Positions 50,796 to 64,000 of a DNA stretch of 64,000 nucleotides are shown piece by piece. The first letter of the stretch is position 1; each line of letters begins with the position of its first letter. Position numbers and translations under genes: made by a program. Source of the stretch: a virus (taxonomy: Duplodnaviria > Caudoviricetes); the IMG/VR virus record IMGVR_UViG_3300013105_000003, positions 32,001 to 96,000 of that record; one strand, given 5' to 3'. Under the pieces are notes generated by a model that was not told where the DNA came from, did not search any database, and was given only the letters and a program-made list of their open reading frames with translations.

Positions 50796-51294
50796 GCGAA
50801 CCACTTATGAGTTCAGCAGAAAGACTATGTCTGGTATTGCCTGCAAGAATTGTGGTCGTCCCTATAGAGACTGTACTATTCGTCTTATGCGAGAGAGTGG
50901 GGGTGGTGCCTGCTGTGGAAGTTGTGCATCTACAGACACTCACGACGAGAAGGAAGAGAAGGCAGTAAGTACAGTGAAGTATAAGAATACTCTTGAGGAC
51001 TTTGAGAAGTGGGTTCGTAGTCGGAGTCATGAGCATATTGCAACTTATAAAACTCTAGACACTTTCAAGGCATTTCTTGAGGAGAATACTCCCAAGAAGG
51101 GTGAAGTCTGGCGAGTACGCTGCATTACATACCTTGGACCCGAGGTACACACATTTTATATGTGGTTCGACGGTGAGCAGTTCATTGATGGTGCTGTATC
51201 CTACGGGCTGGATGAGCTAATCCTAGAAGAGAAAATTGGCACAGACCCAGAGTATGTAAAATACTCTAATAAGAAAGCAAATGAAGATGGCTGA
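50788..51294 (+). CDS. Cys-rich domain fused to a family C domain
   Basis: CKNCG...CCGSC then TLEDFEKW...PKKGEVW. Confidence 0.6.
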   Translation: MSKRTTYEFSRKTMSGIACKNCGRPYRDCTIRLMRESGGGACCGSCASTDTHDEKEEKAVSTVKYKNTLEDFEKWVRSRSHEHIATYKTLDTFKAFLEENTPKKGEVWRVRCITYLGPEVHTFYMWFDGEQFIDGAVSYGLDELILEEKIGTDPEYVKYSNKKANEDG

Positions 51295-52336
51295 GCGTAA
51301 GCTGGCAACAGTAGAAGAAATCCTAGCTATTGAGCCTATCGAGAATGCTGATGCTCTCGAATTGGCTACAGTACGTGGTTGGGGAGTAGTTGTCCGTAAG
51401 GATGAATTCTCTGTAGGTGATAAGGTTGTCTACTTTGAGATTGACTCTTTTCTTGACGTAGAGCGACAAGAGTTTTCCTTCCTTAAGGATCGTGGCACAC
51501 GTCCTATGAATGATCCAGAGGATGAAAAGAAGAAGATTTATGGTCACGCTCTGCGCACCATTAAGCTACGTGGTCAGATCAGTCAAGGTTTAGTTCTTCC
51601 TATGTCGGAGTTCCCTAAGTTTGTAGCTGACCAGCCAGTTGGGACTGATCTAACAGACAATCTAGGTGTACTCAAGTATGAGCCTTATGTCAAGCCACAA
51701 GGTGGTCCACGACGACTCTACACGTTCCCTACGAAGTATGCTGTAAAGTCTGATGCTGAGCGGGTACAGAACCTTTCACAGCGACAGTGGAGTTCTCTAC
51801 AGGATATCCCAGGGTGGTATGCTACTCTTAAGATTGATGGGCAGTCTGTTACTTACTTCAAGGATGATGAGGGTGCTCTCAAGATAGCTACTCGAAACTA
51901 TGAGATTGTTAACCCTATTAGTCCTACATTTCCTCCCTATGAGTGGCTATGGAGCAATTGGGATACAATTGAGGGACTTCTAGAGCCTGGTAACGCCTTG
52001 CAGGGAGAGCTATATGGCCCAAGTATTCAGGGAAATAAGATGGGGATTAAGGAACTAAAGTTTGCTCCATTTAATTTCTTTTACTATGCGAGTCTTATTC
52101 CACGAGAAGAGTGGTACCCAGAGTTTGAAGAGCTAGCAGTACCAACTCTTGACGTAGAGTTCCCTGAGACTATCAAGGAAGCTGTTGACCAAGCCAACGA
52201 TCTACGGTATCCTACTAATGGTAGCCAAGCTGAAGGCATCGTCTGGCACAATAGTGACCCAGAAGTTGCTAAGGTCCTTGGACGTAACTGCTTTAAATCT
52301 ATAAACCAGAAATTCCTACTGAAAAATGAGAAATAA
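51281..52336 (+). CDS. RNA ligase (Rnl2-type, DRB0094-like with N-terminal OB domain)
   Basis: RKLAT...VYFEIDS...KLRGQISQGL; KIDGQS, QGELYGPSIQGN, EGIV, FKSI. Confidence 0.88.
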   Translation: MKMAERKLATVEEILAIEPIENADALELATVRGWGVVVRKDEFSVGDKVVYFEIDSFLDVERQEFSFLKDRGTRPMNDPEDEKKKIYGHALRTIKLRGQISQGLVLPMSEFPKFVADQPVGTDLTDNLGVLKYEPYVKPQGGPRRLYTFPTKYAVKSDAERVQNLSQRQWSSLQDIPGWYATLKIDGQSVTYFKDDEGALKIATRNYEIVNPISPTFPPYEWLWSNWDTIEGLLEPGNALQGELYGPSIQGNKMGIKELKFAPFNFFYYASLIPREEWYPEFEELAVPTLDVEFPETIKEAVDQANDLRYPTNGSQAEGIVWHNSDPEVAKVLGRNCFKSINQKFLLKNEK

Positions 52337-53231: not shown

Positions 53232-53597
53232 ATGACAGTTGCTACAGCAGGTACTATTGACTTATTCAAGCAAGCATATCAAACACGTACTGAGATTGCT
53301 CCTGTAGAGCCTCCTAAGCCTGTTATAGAGGTAAAGCCTACTCCTACCCTACCAGCTGCTCCAAAGACTCTCAGTGAGGCTGTAGGTCGTTCTATTAGGA
53401 TCATTAGGAAGAGTCAGGGAATGACCTTGCGACAGTTGGCTGAGAAGTCATTTGTTAGTCTAGGTCATATCTCAGACACTGAGCTAGGTAAGAAGGACTG
53501 CTCTGGCTTTATGCTGTCTTGTATCATTGAAGGACTTGACGTACCTCTATCTGACGTGTTACGATTGGCAGCAGACTTACTAGATGAAGGAAAGTAA
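53232..53597 (+). CDS. XRE-family helix-turn-helix protein
   Basis: IR..RKSQGMTLRQLAEKSFVSLGHISDTELGKK. Confidence 0.82.
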   Translation: MTVATAGTIDLFKQAYQTRTEIAPVEPPKPVIEVKPTPTLPAAPKTLSEAVGRSIRIIRKSQGMTLRQLAEKSFVSLGHISDTELGKKDCSGFMLSCIIEGLDVPLSDVLRLAADLLDEGK

Positions 53598-57898: not shown

Positions 57899-58063
57899 AT
57901 GGACACAGTAGAGATTCAAGAGTACCTAACCTCTAGCCACAAGGGTAGGGGAACCTCTGGCTATATTCTTCTCACAAACAACTTATTCTTTCATATCAAA
58001 GATGCTCGCATAATTGATGGAGCACTTGTTATTGACAATCTTTATGGAACGGAAAAGAAGTGA
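57899..58063 (+). CDS. Hypothetical protein (leaderless)
   Basis: TTGTGT-17-TACACT, then ATG 6 nt downstream. Confidence 0.45.
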   Translation: MDTVEIQEYLTSSHKGRGTSGYILLTNNLFFHIKDARIIDGALVIDNLYGTEKK

Positions 58064-58323
58064 AGATTTATAAGTATCCTGTTGAGCTTCTCCAGGAACA
58101 AAAGATTAGCCTACCTATCGAGTCTAAGGTGCGTCACTTTGGTACACAAGATGGTAGCCTTATGATGTGGGTAGAGCTAGATCCTGACCTAGAGCACGAA
58201 ATCCATACTTTCTATGTGGTAGGCACAGGTCAGGAAATCCCAGAAGATGCTATTACCTACCACGGCACTGTTTACCTTAATTTCTATGTTCGGCACCTCT
58301 ACTCGAATGGAACGTACCTGTGA
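58060..58323 (+). CDS. Conserved phage protein (IYKY...VVGTG...YHGT)
   Basis: Recognisable motif. Confidence 0.65.
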   Translation: MKIYKYPVELLQEQKISLPIESKVRHFGTQDGSLMMWVELDPDLEHEIHTFYVVGTGQEIPEDAITYHGTVYLNFYVRHLYSNGTYL

Positions 58324-58682
58324 AGCTATTCTCATTGAAAGACTACGCTGAGTCTAAGACTAGTGCTCCTGAGTTTATTGGGGATATTTCCTCAGAGTAC
58401 GGTAAGAAGCAAATCTACAAAATGGCTGAGTTCAATGGTCTAGTTACAGGTCTTGGAGAGTCAGCTACGGTAGTACCCTTTGGGATGGACTACGAGACTA
58501 CGGTAGCTCTACAGCATATCCAAGAAACAATCTTCAGCTACGGTGGAGGGTGCTACGTCACTGAGTGTGGAGAGGTTTACGCTATCAAGGATAACCTAGA
58601 CTACTCATACCTAGATAACTCCGTAGACGAAGATGGACTATGGAGAGAATTCTACAACTACGAGGAAGAGAACAGTGCATGA
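58320..58682 (+). CDS. Hypothetical protein
   Basis: Tiles operon. Confidence 0.55.
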   Translation: MKLFSLKDYAESKTSAPEFIGDISSEYGKKQIYKMAEFNGLVTGLGESATVVPFGMDYETTVALQHIQETIFSYGGGCYVTECGEVYAIKDNLDYSYLDNSVDEDGLWREFYNYEEENSA

Positions 58683-58849
58683 TGGATTTTCTTAAAGCCT
58701 TGGTAATTACAGCTCTCTCAGGTTGGGCCTTGGTAGCTACCCTCACACAAGGTGCTCCTGCCCTAGCAGTAGTTTGTAGTGTAGTGGTGCTCTACCTTAG
58801 TGGTCTACTTATGGGTATGGCTGTGACCATATGGGCGGATAAACGATGA
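58640..58849 (+). CDS. Two-TM membrane protein
   Basis: Hydrophobic. Confidence 0.45.
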   Translation: MERILQLRGREQCMMDFLKALVITALSGWALVATLTQGAPALAVVCSVVVLYLSGLLMGMAVTIWADKR

Positions 58850-58997
58850 TCCAAGACGACTATAACCCATACCTAGACCCTAATAATAAGCCTGCGTATA
58901 TAGTAGAGGACGCAAATTCTAACAAGATGTGTACCTGTAGACCATCTACTAATAATCGGATTAAGACTCCAGGTATCTCTCGTAAAAGTATTAGAAA

Positions 58998-59189
58998 ATG
59001 CAGGAAGCTGAAGGTATGATTTACTTTATCCTGACTGTAGTAATCCTGTCATTGACCATACTTAACATCACCTACGCGGTACGGTTGACACTGTGGTCAC
59101 GTGCACTTCGTAGGGCTGATGCTAAGGAAGCTGCACGACTACACCACAGAGAGCCAACATGGCTCCTGGGTGTGAAAGTATATCGGTAA
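58998..59189 (+). CDS. Membrane-anchored small protein
   Basis: N-terminal TM. Confidence 0.45.
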   Translation: MQEAEGMIYFILTVVILSLTILNITYAVRLTLWSRALRRADAKEAARLHHREPTWLLGVKVYR

Positions 59190-59291
59190 GGAATTAGGAT
59201 TTACTGTGTTTGATGTAGAAATGCTGGATCTAACCAACGGTAAGAGAATCCCTAAAGAGTCTCTGGTAGCGTTAGATAAGCTAGAGGAGTC

Positions 59292-59567
59292 TTGGCCTGG
59301 AGCAACCTTCCACGGTGCTCGCCCTGCCATTGTAGCTGCTGTCATGGACGCTCTGAGAGATGTAGGATACATGGTATGAGCGAGACTCCACCTACTTTGG
59401 GATTCCGTAGACGCTGCTCTTGGTGCTGTGTGCAGTTGAGAGCATGGCAGCTAAACTCCTGCCGAACATGCCACGAGGATATCAAGTATAGATTCTCACC
59501 TAGGCACTTGCACGCCTCACGGTACGATGCTAAGCCTGATAAGTTCCCTACACTTAGGAAGGTCTGA
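59292..59567 (+). CDS. Cys-rich hypothetical protein (start probably ATG 59377)
   Basis: CSWC...CRTC. Confidence 0.4.
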   Translation: MAWSNLPRCSPCHCSCCHGRSERCRIHGMSETPPTLGFRRRCSWCCVQLRAWQLNSCRTCHEDIKYRFSPRHLHASRYDAKPDKFPTLRKV

Positions 59568-59694
59568 AGTTGTCACGTAGAGAGTTTCTCAATAAGATGC
59601 TACGGTGGGCCAAGCCTAGACGTAAGTCACACCTCAGATTGTCTGCCAACAAGATCGCGGCTGATGTAATCACTGTAGAGTTAAAAAACGATAG

Positions 59695-59741
59695 AGACAG
59701 CTAGGCTACTCACTATTTCTTGTGGAGTAGCCTAGCTGTCT
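59695..59741. terminator. Hairpin between convergent transcription units
   Basis: 17-bp IR AGACAGCTAGGCTACTC. Confidence 0.7.
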
Positions 59742-59765
59742 ACGGTAGAGGAAGTGCGCTTAGAG

Positions 59766-60017
59766 TCAGCGGTCCTTGTTGTCGATCCGTCGAAAGACTC
59801 TCGTCTCGTTGACGTAGAGGTCTCGCTCGATCTTGGAGCGAGTTTTACGGACGGTCTTGTAATGCACGTCTCCGATACGGTCGTAACCCGCTGCCATTGC
59901 GTCTACAGCATCGTCGGGCAGAGTGACTGCACGGCCAAGGTCGTAACCCTTTGTGAACTGAACCTTTGAAACGCTCATTTCTGTTGTTTCCTTTTCTGAC
60001 TTACGGTTGGATTCCAC
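59766..60017 (-). CDS. Hypothetical protein (likely start at MSVSK, RBS AAGGA)
   Basis: Leftward promoter TTGACT-17-TAAAGT at 60080-60052. Confidence 0.6.
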   Translation of the reverse strand: MESNRKSEKETTEMSVSKVQFTKGYDLGRAVTLPDDAVDAMAAGYDRIGDVHYKTVRKTRSKIERDLYVNETRVFRRIDNKDR

Positions 60018-60123
60018 AGCTTTGGTGCCCTGGTCTGTGGAACTGATGACTACTTTACTCCGTCCATAAGGTCAAGTCAACACTCCGTCTCACATCGTGG
60101 ACAGGAAATTTTCTAGGCACAGA

Positions 60124-60163
60124 AAAAGGCTACGGTGGAGGGTATGTCCAACCGTAGCCTTTT
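60124..60163. terminator. Bidirectional-type terminator
   Basis: AAAAGGCTACGGT/ACCGTAGCCTTTT. Confidence 0.7.
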
Positions 60164-60175
60164 CCATGTTTCTCT

Positions 60176-60445
60176 CTAGCGTGTTATCTCCATCCGTCGC
60201 AGAGCAACTAAGCAACGTTGTGCAGCTGCTGCAGCGTCCGGGTCGTCAGAGTTACTTGTGTTTGCGTAATACTTGCAGTCACTGATAAGGTCTGTCAGTC
60301 CTTCGTCAGTAAGCATTACTGTAATAGTCCGTGGTGACGATGTTACTACCGTAGTGCCTAGATGCTTTCCGATACGGTCGAACCAGTACCTTAAGTGCTT
60401 GGCAGGCAGCTTGACTGTTACGGTGTGCTTTGCCTTGAGTCTCAT
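60176..60445 (-). CDS. Hypothetical protein
   Basis: RBS AAAGGG and upstream leftward promoter. Confidence 0.6.
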   Translation of the reverse strand: MRLKAKHTVTVKLPAKHLRYWFDRIGKHLGTTVVTSSPRTITVMLTDEGLTDLISDCKYYANTSNSDDPDAAAAAQRCLVALRRMEITR

Positions 60446-60488
60446 AATAAGCTAAACCCTTTTCTTTAGTTGTGTCCTGCTACTAGCT

Positions 60489-60547
60489 ACGGTAGCACCT
60501 AGGGTTAAGTTAGTCAAGTTGACACAGAGCACTATATATGGTACGGT
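60489..60547. promoter_or_regulatory. Back-to-back divergent sigma-A-type promoters
   Basis: Minus: TTGACT-17-TACCGT; plus: TTGACA-17-TACGGT. Confidence 0.6.
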
Positions 60548-60573
60548 GAGGCTCCACAGACAACTAGATAGGT

Positions 60574-60816
60574 GTGATAATGACAAAGGTAAGAGTCACT
60601 AGCCTAGTCCGTATGGCAAATTCTAAAAGTGGTAACCCACAGTATATACTCAATACCGCTAGTGGAATGGTGCTTCACACTAAGCCTGACTCTACGGTCG
60701 GGTACGTGGCACAGGCTTTAGAGCAGTATTTACTAGACGGTAATCCGTCAGTTTCTACTGAAATCACACTAGACAAAGACGGTATGGTAACACGTCTACT
60801 AGGCTACGGTGATTAA
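60574..60816 (+). CDS. Hypothetical protein (NS.SGNP.Y motif)
   Basis: Downstream of the rightward promoter. Confidence 0.6.
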   Translation: MIMTKVRVTSLVRMANSKSGNPQYILNTASGMVLHTKPDSTVGYVAQALEQYLLDGNPSVSTEITLDKDGMVTRLLGYGD

Positions 60817-60836
60817 AATAAGCCTACGGTAACACT

Positions 60837-60895
60837 AAAATAGCTCAGCTTCTATAGTATACTTAAAGTAATGACTATAGAAGCTGAGCTATTTT
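60837..60895. terminator. 22-bp perfect inverted repeat
   Basis: AAAATAGCTCAGCTTCTATAGT and its reverse complement. Confidence 0.7.
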
Positions 60896-60950
60896 TATGC
60901 TCAAAAACAGAAGGTAGAAATTGATCCTATGAGAGTGTTAGTAGCGAACA

Positions 60951-61619
60951 ATGGAACAATATCCTATGACTAAGCCTCTACTATTAGATTTGTTTTGCTG
61001 TTCTGGAGGGAGTGCTGTCGGATATAGTAGAGCAGGTTTTACGGTAATAGGTGTAGACATTGATCCTATCTTGTCAGCTGATTATCCATATGAAATACAC
61101 CACGGTGATGCTTTAGAATTCTTAAAAAGCTACGGTGGAGATTTTGACGTTATCCATGCGTCTCCACCGTGCCAATCAAGCTCAGCACTCACTAAGGGCA
61201 CCAATAAAGGCAGACAATACTTAGACCTAATCCCTCAAACTAGGGAATTACTAGCAACGTTCAATGTACCTACGGTAATAGAAAATGTGCAAGGCGCTAA
61301 GGTACGGAGAGACTTAACCCTATGCGGTGAAATGTTTAGCTTAGGTGTGCTACGGCATAGGTATTTTGAGATAGAAAACGCTACGGTGGAAGTGCCAGAG
61401 CACAAGGCACACCGTGGACGTGTTAGAGGTTGGAGACACGGTAAGTACTACGATGGTCCTTATGTTGCTGTCTACGGATTAGGTGGTGGAAAAGGTACGG
61501 TCCAAGAATGGCAGCAGGCTATGGGTATAGACTGGACAGACAATCGTAAGTCTCTGGCCGAGAGCATACCTCCTGCCTATACGGAGTACATAGGTAATAG
61601 TTTAATAAAATCTATATAG
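60951..61619 (+). CDS. DNA cytosine-C5 methyltransferase (compact phage type)
   Basis: LDLFCCSGG, HASPPCQ, VIENV, RHRYFE, ESIPPAYTEYIG. Confidence 0.85.
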   Translation: MEQYPMTKPLLLDLFCCSGGSAVGYSRAGFTVIGVDIDPILSADYPYEIHHGDALEFLKSYGGDFDVIHASPPCQSSSALTKGTNKGRQYLDLIPQTRELLATFNVPTVIENVQGAKVRRDLTLCGEMFSLGVLRHRYFEIENATVEVPEHKAHRGRVRGWRHGKYYDGPYVAVYGLGGGKGTVQEWQQAMGIDWTDNRKSLAESIPPAYTEYIGNSLIKSI

Positions 61620-61642
61620 CCGGCCTATGTATCCTGGCAAGA

Positions 61643-61694
61643 AAAAGGCACACACCGTAGAGAGAGGATTAGTAACCTACGGTGTGTGCCTTTT
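61643..61694. terminator. Bidirectional terminator
   Basis: 18-bp IR with A/T tails. Confidence 0.7.
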
Positions 61695-61808
61695 CTATAA
61701 TGTGGTGATTAGTAACACTCAACCGAACCATAGGCATTATGGCACTCTCACCCAATCCGCGTAGTGAGCTATTACTAATTCTTATGTCACGGAACACACC
61801 ACAAATCT

Positions 61809-62123
61809 TTAAATACTCCTATGAGCAATTCCTGAGTTAGTGTACGGTCCGTACCTATCAATGGTGGAAAGCATGTTAGACCTACCTACGGGATTAGCAC
61901 TGTGAACGCGAATAGCTACGGTGGGAAAGTTCCCAGACTCTGCCATGTAATCTACTAGCGCCGTACCGTCTCCACCATCGTAGGCAAACTCCCCTAGATC
62001 ATGGTCTAGGCTAGCGTGAGTCACGGTGCCAGTCTCCAGGATACGGATAGCCTCACGGACAGACTTAGCATGCACCCAATTATCAGGGCACGGACGGATA
62101 TCGTCTAACCATAGTTTTGTCAT
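61809..62123 (-). CDS. Cyclic-phosphate-processing receiver-like domain protein
   Basis: LWLDDIRPCP...SLDHDLG...VHSANPVG. Confidence 0.75.
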   Translation of the reverse strand: MTKLWLDDIRPCPDNWVHAKSVREAIRILETGTVTHASLDHDLGEFAYDGGDGTALVDYMAESGNFPTVAIRVHSANPVGRSNMLSTIDRYGPYTNSGIAHRSI

Positions 62124-62253
62124 TAGCTTTCACCTTATTTAGAAGGTCTTTAGTTATGCTTTCCAGTGCATCCACAAATAGTCATACGGTAAGGGTTTTT
62201 ACAATTACAATCTCCAGGACAAAAACAGCCTGTCTCTAGTCTAACATCTTCCA

Positions 62254-62466
62254 TTAGAAGATAACCTCCGCATTACTCTCTGCAGCAAAGTCACGGACCC
62301 ATGCACGGTCCAACTTTTCACCATTGCCAAACCGACTAACGTTAAAGCCACCGTAGGCAGCAGTTTTACTATAGATAAATACCTTACCGTCACCTTCAAC
62401 AAATGAGAGTCTAATGTCCTTTCCGCTGGGAAAAGTCACGGTGGCATAAATGGTACGCTTAGTCAT
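62254..62466 (-). CDS. Hypothetical protein
   Basis: Leftward early operon. Confidence 0.55.
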   Translation of the reverse strand: MTKRTIYATVTFPSGKDIRLSFVEGDGKVFIYSKTAAYGGFNVSRFGNGEKLDRAWVRDFAAESNAEVIF

Positions 62467-62467
62467 T

Positions 62468-62635
62468 TTACTTTCCGCCCCACATAGTAGTAAGTTTGTC
62501 TGCTGTCATGGTACGGTGCAGAGCATTACCAATCGGGCGGTAACAATCAAGGCATATTCCTCCGGGAAAGACAGCCAACTCGCTAATGGTATTCTTACAC
62601 ATAGTGCAATTAACCTTACGGTCGATAAGTTCCAT
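62468..62635 (-). CDS. Small zinc-finger protein (55 aa, below track cutoff)
   Basis: RBS TGAGAGGA; CTMC...CLDC. Confidence 0.6.
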   Translation of the reverse strand: MELIDRKVNCTMCKNTISELAVFPGGICLDCYRPIGNALHRTMTADKLTTMWGGK

Positions 62636-62667
62636 TATTTCATATCCTCTCAGTTGTGTTTCTGTCC

Positions 62668-62724
62668 CTTAGTGGACAATGCATAGCCTAGCACACAGGT
62701 CTAGGCTACACACAATGCACTAAG
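62668..62724 (-). repeat. Leader hairpin element, copy 1
   Basis: CTTAGTG-GACAA-[stem]-CAATG-CACTAAG. Confidence 0.8.
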
Positions 62725-62843
62725 TTCTAATCCTTCCAAACGTTGGGACGGTTACGCAATTTGTAAAACTTAGGGTAACGATACCGTGACCATAAGTTGC
62801 GGAATACAGTAATCACATTTTTAGCTCCTCTCATTTGTTTGTC

Positions 62844-62901
62844 CTTAGTGGACAACTACCGACACGGTACCATGTATCCGTGTCGGAAGCAATGCACTAA
62901 G
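62844..62901 (-). repeat. Leader hairpin element, copy 2
   Basis: Same frame with a different inner stem. Confidence 0.8.
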
Positions 62902-62950
62902 AATTATCAAATTTTAAATTTAATGCCGGCTATATACCTCTCATGATATA

Positions 62951-63442
62951 CTAAACTAGGGAATTCAATCGGTGCCAAGAATCAATTGGCTTTTCATTGT
63001 CGTAATAACGAACGGTAACACGCCGTAGGATAGCAGAACAATCCTTATTTGTGCATTCCTGCACCGAATAAGAATTAGTAACGCTAAAGCCTTTAAAAGA
63101 CCACTTGTGTTGTTTATGATCCTTTGCTGTACCGTCGATCAACTTAGCGTAACGGTCTCCGAACGTCCACACAAAATGATGATAGTCGAAATAATCTCGC
63201 GTAGACATTAGGGGGTCGGTACGGTAAAGCATTTCGATAAACACGCCCCATTCGTCAAACGTTGCGGCTCGGTAATCATTACCGTTAGACATACGCGACG
63301 AATTACCGGACAGCTTAATTTCCCATGCTTTATCATGAGTACGCGAACGATGCTCCGTAGCGGTCTCCAGTGTGACACCTGCCACCGTGGCGGCATTGTC
63401 GATAACGCTACTGTCTACCGTAGAGCTAGTGTGAAAACGCAT
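62951..63442 (-). CDS. Hypothetical protein
   Basis: RBS TGAGAGGA; AATFDEWGVF motif. Confidence 0.65.
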   Translation of the reverse strand: MRFHTSSTVDSSVIDNAATVAGVTLETATEHRSRTHDKAWEIKLSGNSSRMSNGNDYRAATFDEWGVFIEMLYRTDPLMSTRDYFDYHHFVWTFGDRYAKLIDGTAKDHKQHKWSFKGFSVTNSYSVQECTNKDCSAILRRVTVRYYDNEKPIDSWHRLNSLV

Positions 63443-63466
63443 TGTATAATCCTCTCATGGTTTGCC

Positions 63467-63520
63467 CTTAGTGGACAATTCCGACCATAGTTTTAGCTAT
63501 GGTCGAAACAATTCACTAAG
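63467..63520 (-). repeat. Leader hairpin element, copy 3
   Basis: Same frame with a different inner stem. Confidence 0.8.
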
Positions 63521-63523
63521 AAT

Positions 63524-63673
63524 TCAATCTTCTTCCACTAGGTTATTAACGATAGTGGAATGAGTAAACCCATAACTATCGAGTAACTTAGATATTTCTT
63601 TTTCAATTGCGACAGACTCCCAACCAGAACACTCTACCGAAAAGGCTATTTCATACATGTTATTCTCTGGCAT
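63524..63673 (-). CDS. Small acidic protein (49 aa)
   Basis: RBS TGAGAGGA. Confidence 0.5.
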   Translation of the reverse strand: MPENNMYEIAFSVECSGWESVAIEKEISKLLDSYGFTHSTIVNNLVEED

Positions 63674-63765
63674 TATGTAATCCTCTCATATGGCTACGGT
63701 GCATCAATTGATTGATACAATACCTAATACATTCCCAGGAATGCACTAGATACAATGCCAATTAA

Positions 63766-63987
63766 CTAACACGGACAGAACCACAACGGCGTGTCGCAGA
63801 ACGGACAACGTTTGCGGTCTGTCATGTGCTCTCGCGTCGGTTCAAATGACGCGAGCGTGTCACTCATGCCATTACGAACAGTGGCACGATTACGCCGCCT
63901 CTGCTGCCTTTTCGCAATGGTAACTGCTCGCCCAATAGCACGCGATTCACGCGAGTTAGAGCGCCACTTGCCATCGTTAAGAGACAA
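63766..63987 (-). CDS. Basic Cys-rich hypothetical protein
   Basis: CPFCD...CPC; start uncertain near the window edge. Confidence 0.45.
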   Translation of the reverse strand: MSLNDGKWRSNSRESRAIGRAVTIAKRQQRRRNRATVRNGMSDTLASFEPTREHMTDRKRCPFCDTPLWFCPC

Positions 63988-64000
63988 CTCAACACGCTTA

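Follow-up and report, generated by a model that had tools for sequence, protein, structure and literature searches.

An oriented, densely filled field of TACGGT words in a large phage genome, possibly an array of docking sites for one DNA-binding protein

Why should one short word be written 46 times on one strand of a 6-kb block, at about ten times its background rate? The question is raised by IMG/VR virus record IMGVR_UViG_3300013105_000003 (Duplodnaviria; Caudoviricetes), a record of 125,231 bp, of which bases 32001-96000 form the window, i.e., the whole stretch of 64,000 nucleotides studied here. The whole record was laid out for counts; window coordinates are used throughout, and the field of words in question corresponds to 90.4-96.4 kb of the genome. 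An earlier reading of the letters alone (the original prediction) had counted about 58 ACGGT/ACCGT sites at 58380-63700, about 45 of them as ACGGT on the plus strand, and our counts of 45 ACGGT and 13 ACCGT match these numbers exactly. The field itself spans 58399 to 64409 and holds 46 plus-strand and 13 minus-strand sites, the final site lying just beyond the window. The rates are 7.5 per kb (+) and 2.1 per kb (−) in the field vs. 0.67 (+) and 0.60 (−) elsewhere (Poisson P = 5e-32 and 1e-4, respectively), and the 46:13 strand bias has P = 2e-5. The density is not the same genome-wide: the enrichment is restricted to this single island of about 6 kb in the whole record, the other 2-kb bins holding 0-5 copies per strand.

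The extended word is gnTACGGTr, in which the lower-case g, n and r flank a TACGGT core. Within the field, the core occurs 31 times on the plus strand and 5 times on the minus strand, and GCTACGGT occurs in 11 copies on the plus strand. TACGGT was found 38 times in the 20-kb locus, vs. 8.7 ± 3.0 in dinucleotide shuffles (maximum 19), and in a genome-wide scan of locally enriched 5- to 7-mers the word ranks far above all others. The flanks of the copies are unique, showing that the sites are not a repeat family. The site density is highest at 60-61.5 kb, 3-4 kb inside the right edge of the field, and just beyond that edge the plus-strand word has 0 copies in 7.9 kb, where 6-8 would be expected, together with 3 minus-strand copies. 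Neither helical phasing nor mod-3 spacing gave a signal among the field sites, nothing scored above threshold in Rfam, and no tRNA genes were found in the field.

Is the word then a by-product of the way in which the proteins of this block are encoded? Two null models that keep the protein sequences fixed were applied to 14 genes, which contain 43 of the 59 sites: one draws on genome codon usage (2000 trials), and the other shuffles synonymous codons within each gene. The 33 plus-oriented coding copies compare with 9.3 ± 2.7 (maximum 18) under the first null and 15.5 ± 2.7 (maximum 25) under the second, whereas the 10 minus-oriented coding copies compare with about 6.5 expected. Every codon phase and both gene senses are represented among the sites, as are intergenic DNA and hairpin stems, in line with the original prediction, which had described sites in non-coding DNA, terminator stems, varied codon phases and genes of both strands. 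Its claim that codon bias does not explain the sites is thus upheld: with an excess that survives both codon-aware nulls and sites in every phase, in both gene senses and outside genes, codon bias is excluded, and the selection acts on the level of DNA, not of protein or RNA.

The same result is obtained when one counts positions at which the word could have been written without changing the protein. Thr-Val is written ACG-GTN in 7 of 9 instances in the plus-strand genes of the field vs. 4 of 140 elsewhere, and the four tallied classes of two-codon opportunity are used in 30 of 51 cases in the field vs. 60 of 534 elsewhere. Counting all plus-strand opportunities, the field genes use 33 of 55 (~60%) and the flanking genes 1 of 38 (~3%; Fisher P = 2e-9), the latter being made up of 1 of 15 in the five genes left of the field and 0 of 23 in the seven genes to the right. 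The edges of the field are therefore sharp, and they coincide with gene borders. The degree of saturation is illustrated by a gene with homologues in other phages, which encodes a short C5 cytosine DNA methyltransferase sharing about 70% identity with enzymes of Gordonia and Mycobacterium phages. This gene carries 7 plus copies, whereas the six homologues compared, which are from phages of Gordonia, Mycobacterium and Rhodococcus, carry 0, 0, 0, 0, 1 and 2. Motif-forming codons stand at all four of its Thr-Val pairs (ACG-GTN) and at an invariant His-Gly, and several copies fall on conserved residues, while the word at a His (61102) and at a Tyr (61132) depends on residues present in none of the six homologues.

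The orientation of the sites follows the DNA strand, not the gene strand. In minus-strand genes, 16 copies are antisense and 9 sense, and the use of minus-strand opportunities (10 of 47, 21%) falls well below the plus-strand value given above (P = 1e-4). The strand ratio reaches 31:5 in the left and central part of the field (58.3-61.8 kb). Among the minus copies, several form the mirror arm of a hairpin or have a plus copy 19-28 bp away. The oriented, DNA-level nature of the sites that had been predicted is therefore borne out.

A further rule governs the distances between sites. The minimum spacing among the 59 sites is 19 bp, and closer pairs number 0 vs. 9-10 expected when sites are placed at random at an equal number per kb (P <= 5e-5). 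The interval of 19-30 bp accounts for nine spacings, and above 19 bp the distribution is roughly exponential. Five pairs of plus-strand opportunities lie less than 19 bp apart, and in 5 of 5 exactly one member is used, showing that a second site within about two helical turns brings no benefit. Since an exclusion below 19 bp is what a protein footprint would predict, this result favors a protein-binding array. It is not expected of Chi-type, methylation or promoter sites and argues against all three.

The spacing rule would, however, also be predicted by same-strand nicks. If a phage or host nickase cut the plus strand at the word, close nicks would free an oligonucleotide or break the duplex, and the bias to one strand would avoid double-strand breaks; one-strand interruptions occur in T5-like and some Pseudomonas phages. 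However, no nickase or HNH gene was identified in the field or adjoining it, the known nick sets are few and dispersed over the genome as opposed to 46 in 6 kb, and 13 of the present sites are on the opposite strand, some of them only 19-28 bp from plus sites. We regard strand-specific nicking as improbable.

Methylation had been named in the original prediction, with the field as the target of the methyltransferase in its middle. Hemimethylated sites would then act as landmarks that mark the block epigenetically. The enzyme gene does lie at the density peak, and the word holds a CpG though the genome is strongly CpG-depleted. However, such an enzyme needs neither local enrichment nor spacing exclusion, and the same family is found in many phages without such fields, e.g., Phabuloso and Trina, with 12/10 and 20/11 copies in 12-15-kb loci. 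This candidate, which predicts no spacing exclusion, did not gain support, and there is little chance that it accounts for the field.

Another use for a word of this shape would be as a forest of −10-like elements (TAnnnT with an upstream G) for the host RNA polymerase, which could soak up polymerase, make it pause or give rise to pervasive transcription rightward. GnTACGGT fits GnTAnnnT, the loose −10 pattern of Actinobacteria, and the copies point one way. However, the three middle bases are invariant, which is unlike real −10 sets, no −35, start-site or spacing signal was found, the footprint of polymerase is far larger than the 19-bp exclusion, and a sigma-70-type scan gave no excess (18 vs. 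14.2 ± 3.7). A promoter forest is thus extremely improbable.

What lies in the field bears on what the sites could do there. From left to right, the field takes in the end of a rightward block of 90 kb, a leftward gene pair, a rightward pair that includes the methyltransferase gene and, in its last stretch, most of a leftward small-gene operon; a 700-bp non-coding stretch and then an Lsr2-like gene follow. The features of the window that the argument needs are as follows.

58060-58323: DUF7352 gene preceding the field; opportunities used, 0/4
58320..58682, plus strand: first field gene, 120 amino acids (aa), no family; 4/6 synonymous opportunities used
58399..64000 in the window, plus strand: motif field, 46 ACGGT, 31 of them as TACGGT, with 13 sites on the minus strand
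59766..59978, minus strand: basic open reading frame (ORF) in the field core, 70 aa, isoelectric point (pI) 9.6; 2 antisense (+) sites; low-confidence fold model
60124..60163: bidirectional terminator-like hairpin with the motif in both arms (GGCTACGGT / ACCGTAGCC); −25.6 kcal/mol, z −5.4
60176..60445, minus strand: basic ORF, 89 aa, pI 9.6; fold model with predicted local distance difference test score (pLDDT) 76; matches uncharacterised phage proteins only
60580..60816, plus strand: ORF, 78 aa; 4/5 opportunities used, and two more consensus copies within 20 bases around the stop codon
60951..61619, plus strand: short C5 cytosine DNA methyltransferase, 222 aa (PF00145, phrog_363)
61640..61696: bidirectional terminator hairpin with convergent genes on either side and the motif in both arms; −31.4 kcal/mol, z −6.5
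61809..62123, minus strand: cREC_REC-domain protein (PF20274); 3 antisense (+) copies, 1 sense
62254..62635, minus strand: two small ORFs, 70 and 55 aa; 4 plus-oriented and 2 minus-oriented copies
62700..64000: in-window, left part of a CpG-normal domain, the boundary of which the field straddles
62951..63442, minus strand: orphan ORF, 163 aa, final gene of the coding field; 3/8 plus and 4/6 minus opportunities used
63693..63701, plus strand: full-consensus copy GCTACGGTG standing alone upstream of a minus-strand gene
63766-64017: a further basic ORF

The adjacent genes at the left edge use 0/4 and 4/6 of their opportunities, respectively, making this edge sharp, and the genes next after the orphan ORF use 0/4 and 0/1, so that the right edge is sharp as well. 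The isolated copy at 63693..63701 has a twin at 64406-64414, bordering the 700-bp non-coding region outside the window. Facing this last motif copy (GCTACGGTGTGACA, L129:8406-8419), two imperfect inverted copies stand at L129:9029-9059 on the far side of the region, which is thereby bracketed by motif-like elements that face each other.

The leftward genes carry a second kind of element. A structured cassette is present in three copies on the minus strand, at 62640-62730, 62815-62905 and 63440-63530, each just upstream of a ribosome-binding site (GAGAGGA). Its outer stem is conserved (CUUAGUG ... UUGUCCACUAAG), whereas the sequence of the inner hairpin is wholly different in each copy, with the pairing kept. 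The conserved 3′ arm includes TTGTCCAC, which resembles the actinobacterial DnaA-box consensus. No Rfam match to the cassettes was found. The cREC_REC protein belongs to a gene set of the RNA-repair type, which also comprises two RNA ligases and a tRNA-His guanylyltransferase (set coordinates: window 51281-52336, L163:3471-4607, L165:7124-7828 and window 61809-62123).

How might such a block work? We tentatively propose that about 59 docking sites for a single sequence-specific DNA-binding protein make up the field, a reading that we consider plausible while stopping short of calling it probable. The reader protein would recognize the asymmetric gnTACGGTr and cover roughly 19-20 bp per site. 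Selection would have placed the word at every available position of the 6-kb block, i.e., in non-coding DNA, in terminator stems and in genes on both strands, the coding sites being gained via synonymous and some amino-acid changes. When the reader is present, the block would be coated, and the coat is most likely directional because the sites point one way whatever the direction of the genes. It may then act as a polar roadblock or insulator that halts RNA polymerase moving one way through the junction of two opposed transcription units, i.e., the rightward genes of the 90-kb block and the operon of small leftward genes, by the logic of mycobacteriophage stoperators.

Several observations weigh against this proposal. 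First, with an information content of only about 11-12 bits and 39 TACGGT copies beyond the field, the word would need to gain its specificity from the density of sites. Second, the right third of the field shows a weak strand bias (15:8), and the sites lack the regular spacing or helical phasing of a filament; they are also mostly intragenic, do not track transcription and are confined to 6 kb, unlike stoperators. Third, the search for a reader found none. Pfam and PHROG scans of about 40 neighboring proteins matched only the C5 methyltransferase, cREC_REC, DUF7352, Lsr2, an XRE helix-turn-helix (HTH) protein and an Rv2179c-like protein, and apart from those 5 kb and 22 kb away from the field there are no clear HTH proteins; the XRE protein at 53232, which the original prediction had singled out, is a real HTH_3 protein, but no link between it and the word emerged. 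Single-sequence folds of the two basic field proteins gave no known DNA-binding fold. Across the whole genome there is no match to Mu Gam, FtsK or ParB_N, none to Sigma70_r4 (PF04545) at E <= 1 with the single domain model tried, and none in the record to the L5 repressor gp71 at E <= 10 in a sequence-only search. Finally, no relatives were found in which conservation of the sites could show.

This last point follows the isolated position of the phage. Searching 50,697 phage records with the field (megablast and blastn) gave matches in the methyltransferase gene only, and the phage is a singleton, without DNA match among isolates. No IMG/VR relatives were found for two field proteins and the DNA polymerase, and the best relative of the RNA ligase, 55% identical, lies on a 2.5-kb contig. 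The closest terminase is that of Microbacterium phage Magritte (37% identical), which has the same gene order, followed by those of 130-kb Streptomyces phages (30%). The relatives of the methyltransferase, of Lsr2 and of the RNA ligase indicate a host among the Actinobacteria. The gene of the Lsr2-like DNA-binding protein (65117-65488, i.e., L129:9117-9488; PF23359, E = 2e-13) opens a rightward block past the 700-bp non-coding region and likewise supports such a host. At 101-105 kb of the genome, another word, ATCGAAA, occurs in 7 copies in 4 kb, where 0.05 would be expected; the rightward small-gene block may use it as a promoter or operator word.

Where the field lies relative to the ends of the DNA matters for the next alternative. 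The original prediction had placed it at the right end, in a first-entering or early region, but this is the end of the window only. The endolysin reading frame crosses the record end into the record start (L165:18033-19229), showing that the 123-bp direct terminal repeat is an assembly overlap. The record is therefore a circular assembly with arbitrary ends, which do not give the true physical termini; the field is internal to it, and a terminal or first-entering location is not supported.

In a Chi-like role, the co-oriented words would attenuate host AdnAB or RecBCD entering from a DNA end right of the field, protecting the concatemer or the entering DNA and promoting recombination, as in phages LLS and MD8. 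The word has the appropriate traits, being short, asymmetric, indifferent to coding, strongly co-oriented and locally clustered. Its 3′ side faces the 700-bp non-coding region where the field stops, plus copies are absent past the right edge, and no Mu Gam-type inhibitor was found in the genome. However, the strict exclusion below 19 bp is left without explanation, the peak of density lies 3-4 kb inside the right edge, not at it, and the Magritte record opens with a coding sequence at base 1, suggesting, though not proving, circular permutation. Unlike Chi-rich phages, this phage encodes its own UvsX/RecA-like recombinase and SbcD/Mre11-like nuclease, along with exonucleases. In addition, none of 406 sampled Actinomycetota genomes (5 + 401, of which 15 are unpublished) shows over-representation of GCTACGGT, which reaches at most about 52 per Mb and usually stays below the reversed control; this is a weak test as the host is not identified and the core may be 5-6 nt. 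The Chi candidate of the original prediction thus did not find support, and we consider it unlikely, while giving it more weight than nicking or methylation.

Base composition bears on whether the field arose where it now stands. The CpG observed/expected ratio (o/e) is 0.54 genome-wide, with depletion in all sequence contexts and no TpG/CpA excess to match it. A domain of small genes, 9.5 kb long and sharply bounded (62.7-72.3 kb; L129:6700-16300), is CpG-normal, with an o/e of about 1.1; a smaller CpG-normal patch lies at 122-124 kb of the genome. In the Streptomyces phage Karimac, the left 12 kb, with leftward small genes, Lsr2 and ParB-N, differ in CpG in the same way from the remainder of the first 50 kb, so that the domain might correspond to a terminal or early region. 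With the motif masked, the CpG o/e of the field is 0.80 vs. 0.57 in the rest of the genome; together with the sharp edges at gene borders, this would fit passive import from a word-rich donor phage, the word having no role here. However, the field covers two compositional domains, spanning the boundary at ~62.7 kb, from which it follows that the word was selected in place and not imported as one module, and the saturation of opportunities together with the spacing exclusion indicates ongoing selection. An RNA-level motif on a long plus-strand transcript would have to cope with two strong bidirectional terminators and genes on both strands in the block. Passive import and an RNA motif, taken together, are highly improbable.

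Comparable fields were sought in other phages. Scanning IMG/VR for three CTACGGT in a row gave tandem coding repeats only among the matches listed, the five densest of which were looked at individually. A TACGGT field is absent from Magritte, and Karimac shows only a rise of ACGGT, driven by composition, in its GC-rich left 12 kb; the word CGGGAG is not enriched in the first 50 kb of Karimac. In the comparable place of Magritte (OR553905.1, 88-104 kb), CGCAG occurs 97 times on the plus strand and 6 times on the minus strand (CGCAGC, 32:1), and only 5 of 290 codon opportunities for the reverse word are taken, vs. about 10% elsewhere. This polarity could be one of general strand composition rather than a single-word field, because many other purine-rich words are also polar there. 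In Karimac (NC_048724.1, 14484-14915), a stretch of about 430 bp on the near inner side of the GC/CpG shift in composition is densely set with 18 copies of TGTCAC and 6 of its complement GTGACA.

If the block is indeed coated by a reader protein, it would be a regulatory or protective device built from site density, in which about 60% of the codon-compatible positions have been converted, some at the cost of amino-acid changes, well past the known operator, stoperator or Chi arrangements. The identity of the reader would reveal a new polar silencing or insulating system in Actinobacteria phages, or else the word of a host DNA-tracking enzyme; the 19-bp exclusion amounts to a direct biochemical prediction of its footprint size. 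Opportunity use and spacing exclusion also form a reusable test that separates binding arrays from Chi-like signals. More broadly, there is some, if a rather small, chance that large phages recurrently carry an undescribed feature of this kind, i.e., a block of several kb on the early-gene side with one strand saturated by a lineage-specific word, represented here by a new polar DNA-coating regulator or by a Chi-type signal that would be the first for AdnAB or RecBCD of Actinobacteria. To our knowledge, no Chi sequence is known for either of these actinobacterial enzymes.

How does the field compare with known systems? Iterons are 10-22 bp in length, number from a few to about 12, and are regularly spaced in non-coding DNA. 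Like the field, iteron, ParR and ParB arrays place many copies of one word in one region, where they are bound by protein and sometimes form direct repeats; the field differs in its unique flanks, its irregular spacing and the lack of a ParB_N gene in the genome. The KOPS, SRS and TRS words guide FtsK, SpoIIIE and TraB, respectively, with a polarity that flips at the target, and they are spread chromosome-wide or confined to a short clt locus. These too are oriented short words, read by a directional machine. However, the field has neither a polarity flip nor a mirrored counterpart (0 plus and 3 minus copies in the 7.9 kb rightward), and the phage has no match to the FtsK/SpoIIIE family (PF01580), though a host enzyme could still serve, so that the KOPS-like candidate fared poorly.

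Terminal Chi clusters have been reported in phages LLS (E. coli; 20:3 near one end) and MD8 (Pseudomonas; 32:0), at about 1 site per kb, by a known cos end and in phages without recombination genes (PMC12315714). The field shares with them a short asymmetric word that is strand-biased, clustered and placed regardless of coding, and is set apart by its 7.5 sites per kb, by its spacing exclusion and by the phage having its own recombinase.

The stoperators of Cluster A mycobacteriophages (L5 gp71, TipsytheTRex repressor) are asymmetric words read by a monomeric repressor; their orientation is essential, in that reversed sites fail to block elongation, resulting in polar silencing of transcription (PMC9283540). 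They are 13-mers, about 20-30 in number, located genome-wide in promoters and short intergenic gaps and pointing with transcription (PMC9283540). Both systems hold many copies of an asymmetric word in Actinobacteria phages, and these published polar repressor sites are a precedent that supports an array of protein-binding sites (PMC9283540). Among the candidates of the original prediction, the stoperator-like one gives the best fit on account of the 19-bp minimum, while its expectation of sites that point with transcription and of an L5-type repressor failed. The field has a 6-bp core, 59 copies in 6 kb, mostly intragenic, and an orientation fixed to the DNA strand. It is not a member of the stoperator system, because its orientation does not follow transcription, its sites are intragenic and local and no gp71 homologue accompanies it. 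Set beside all of these systems, the field is an array of oriented sites that is unusual in its saturation and in its strict spacing rule.

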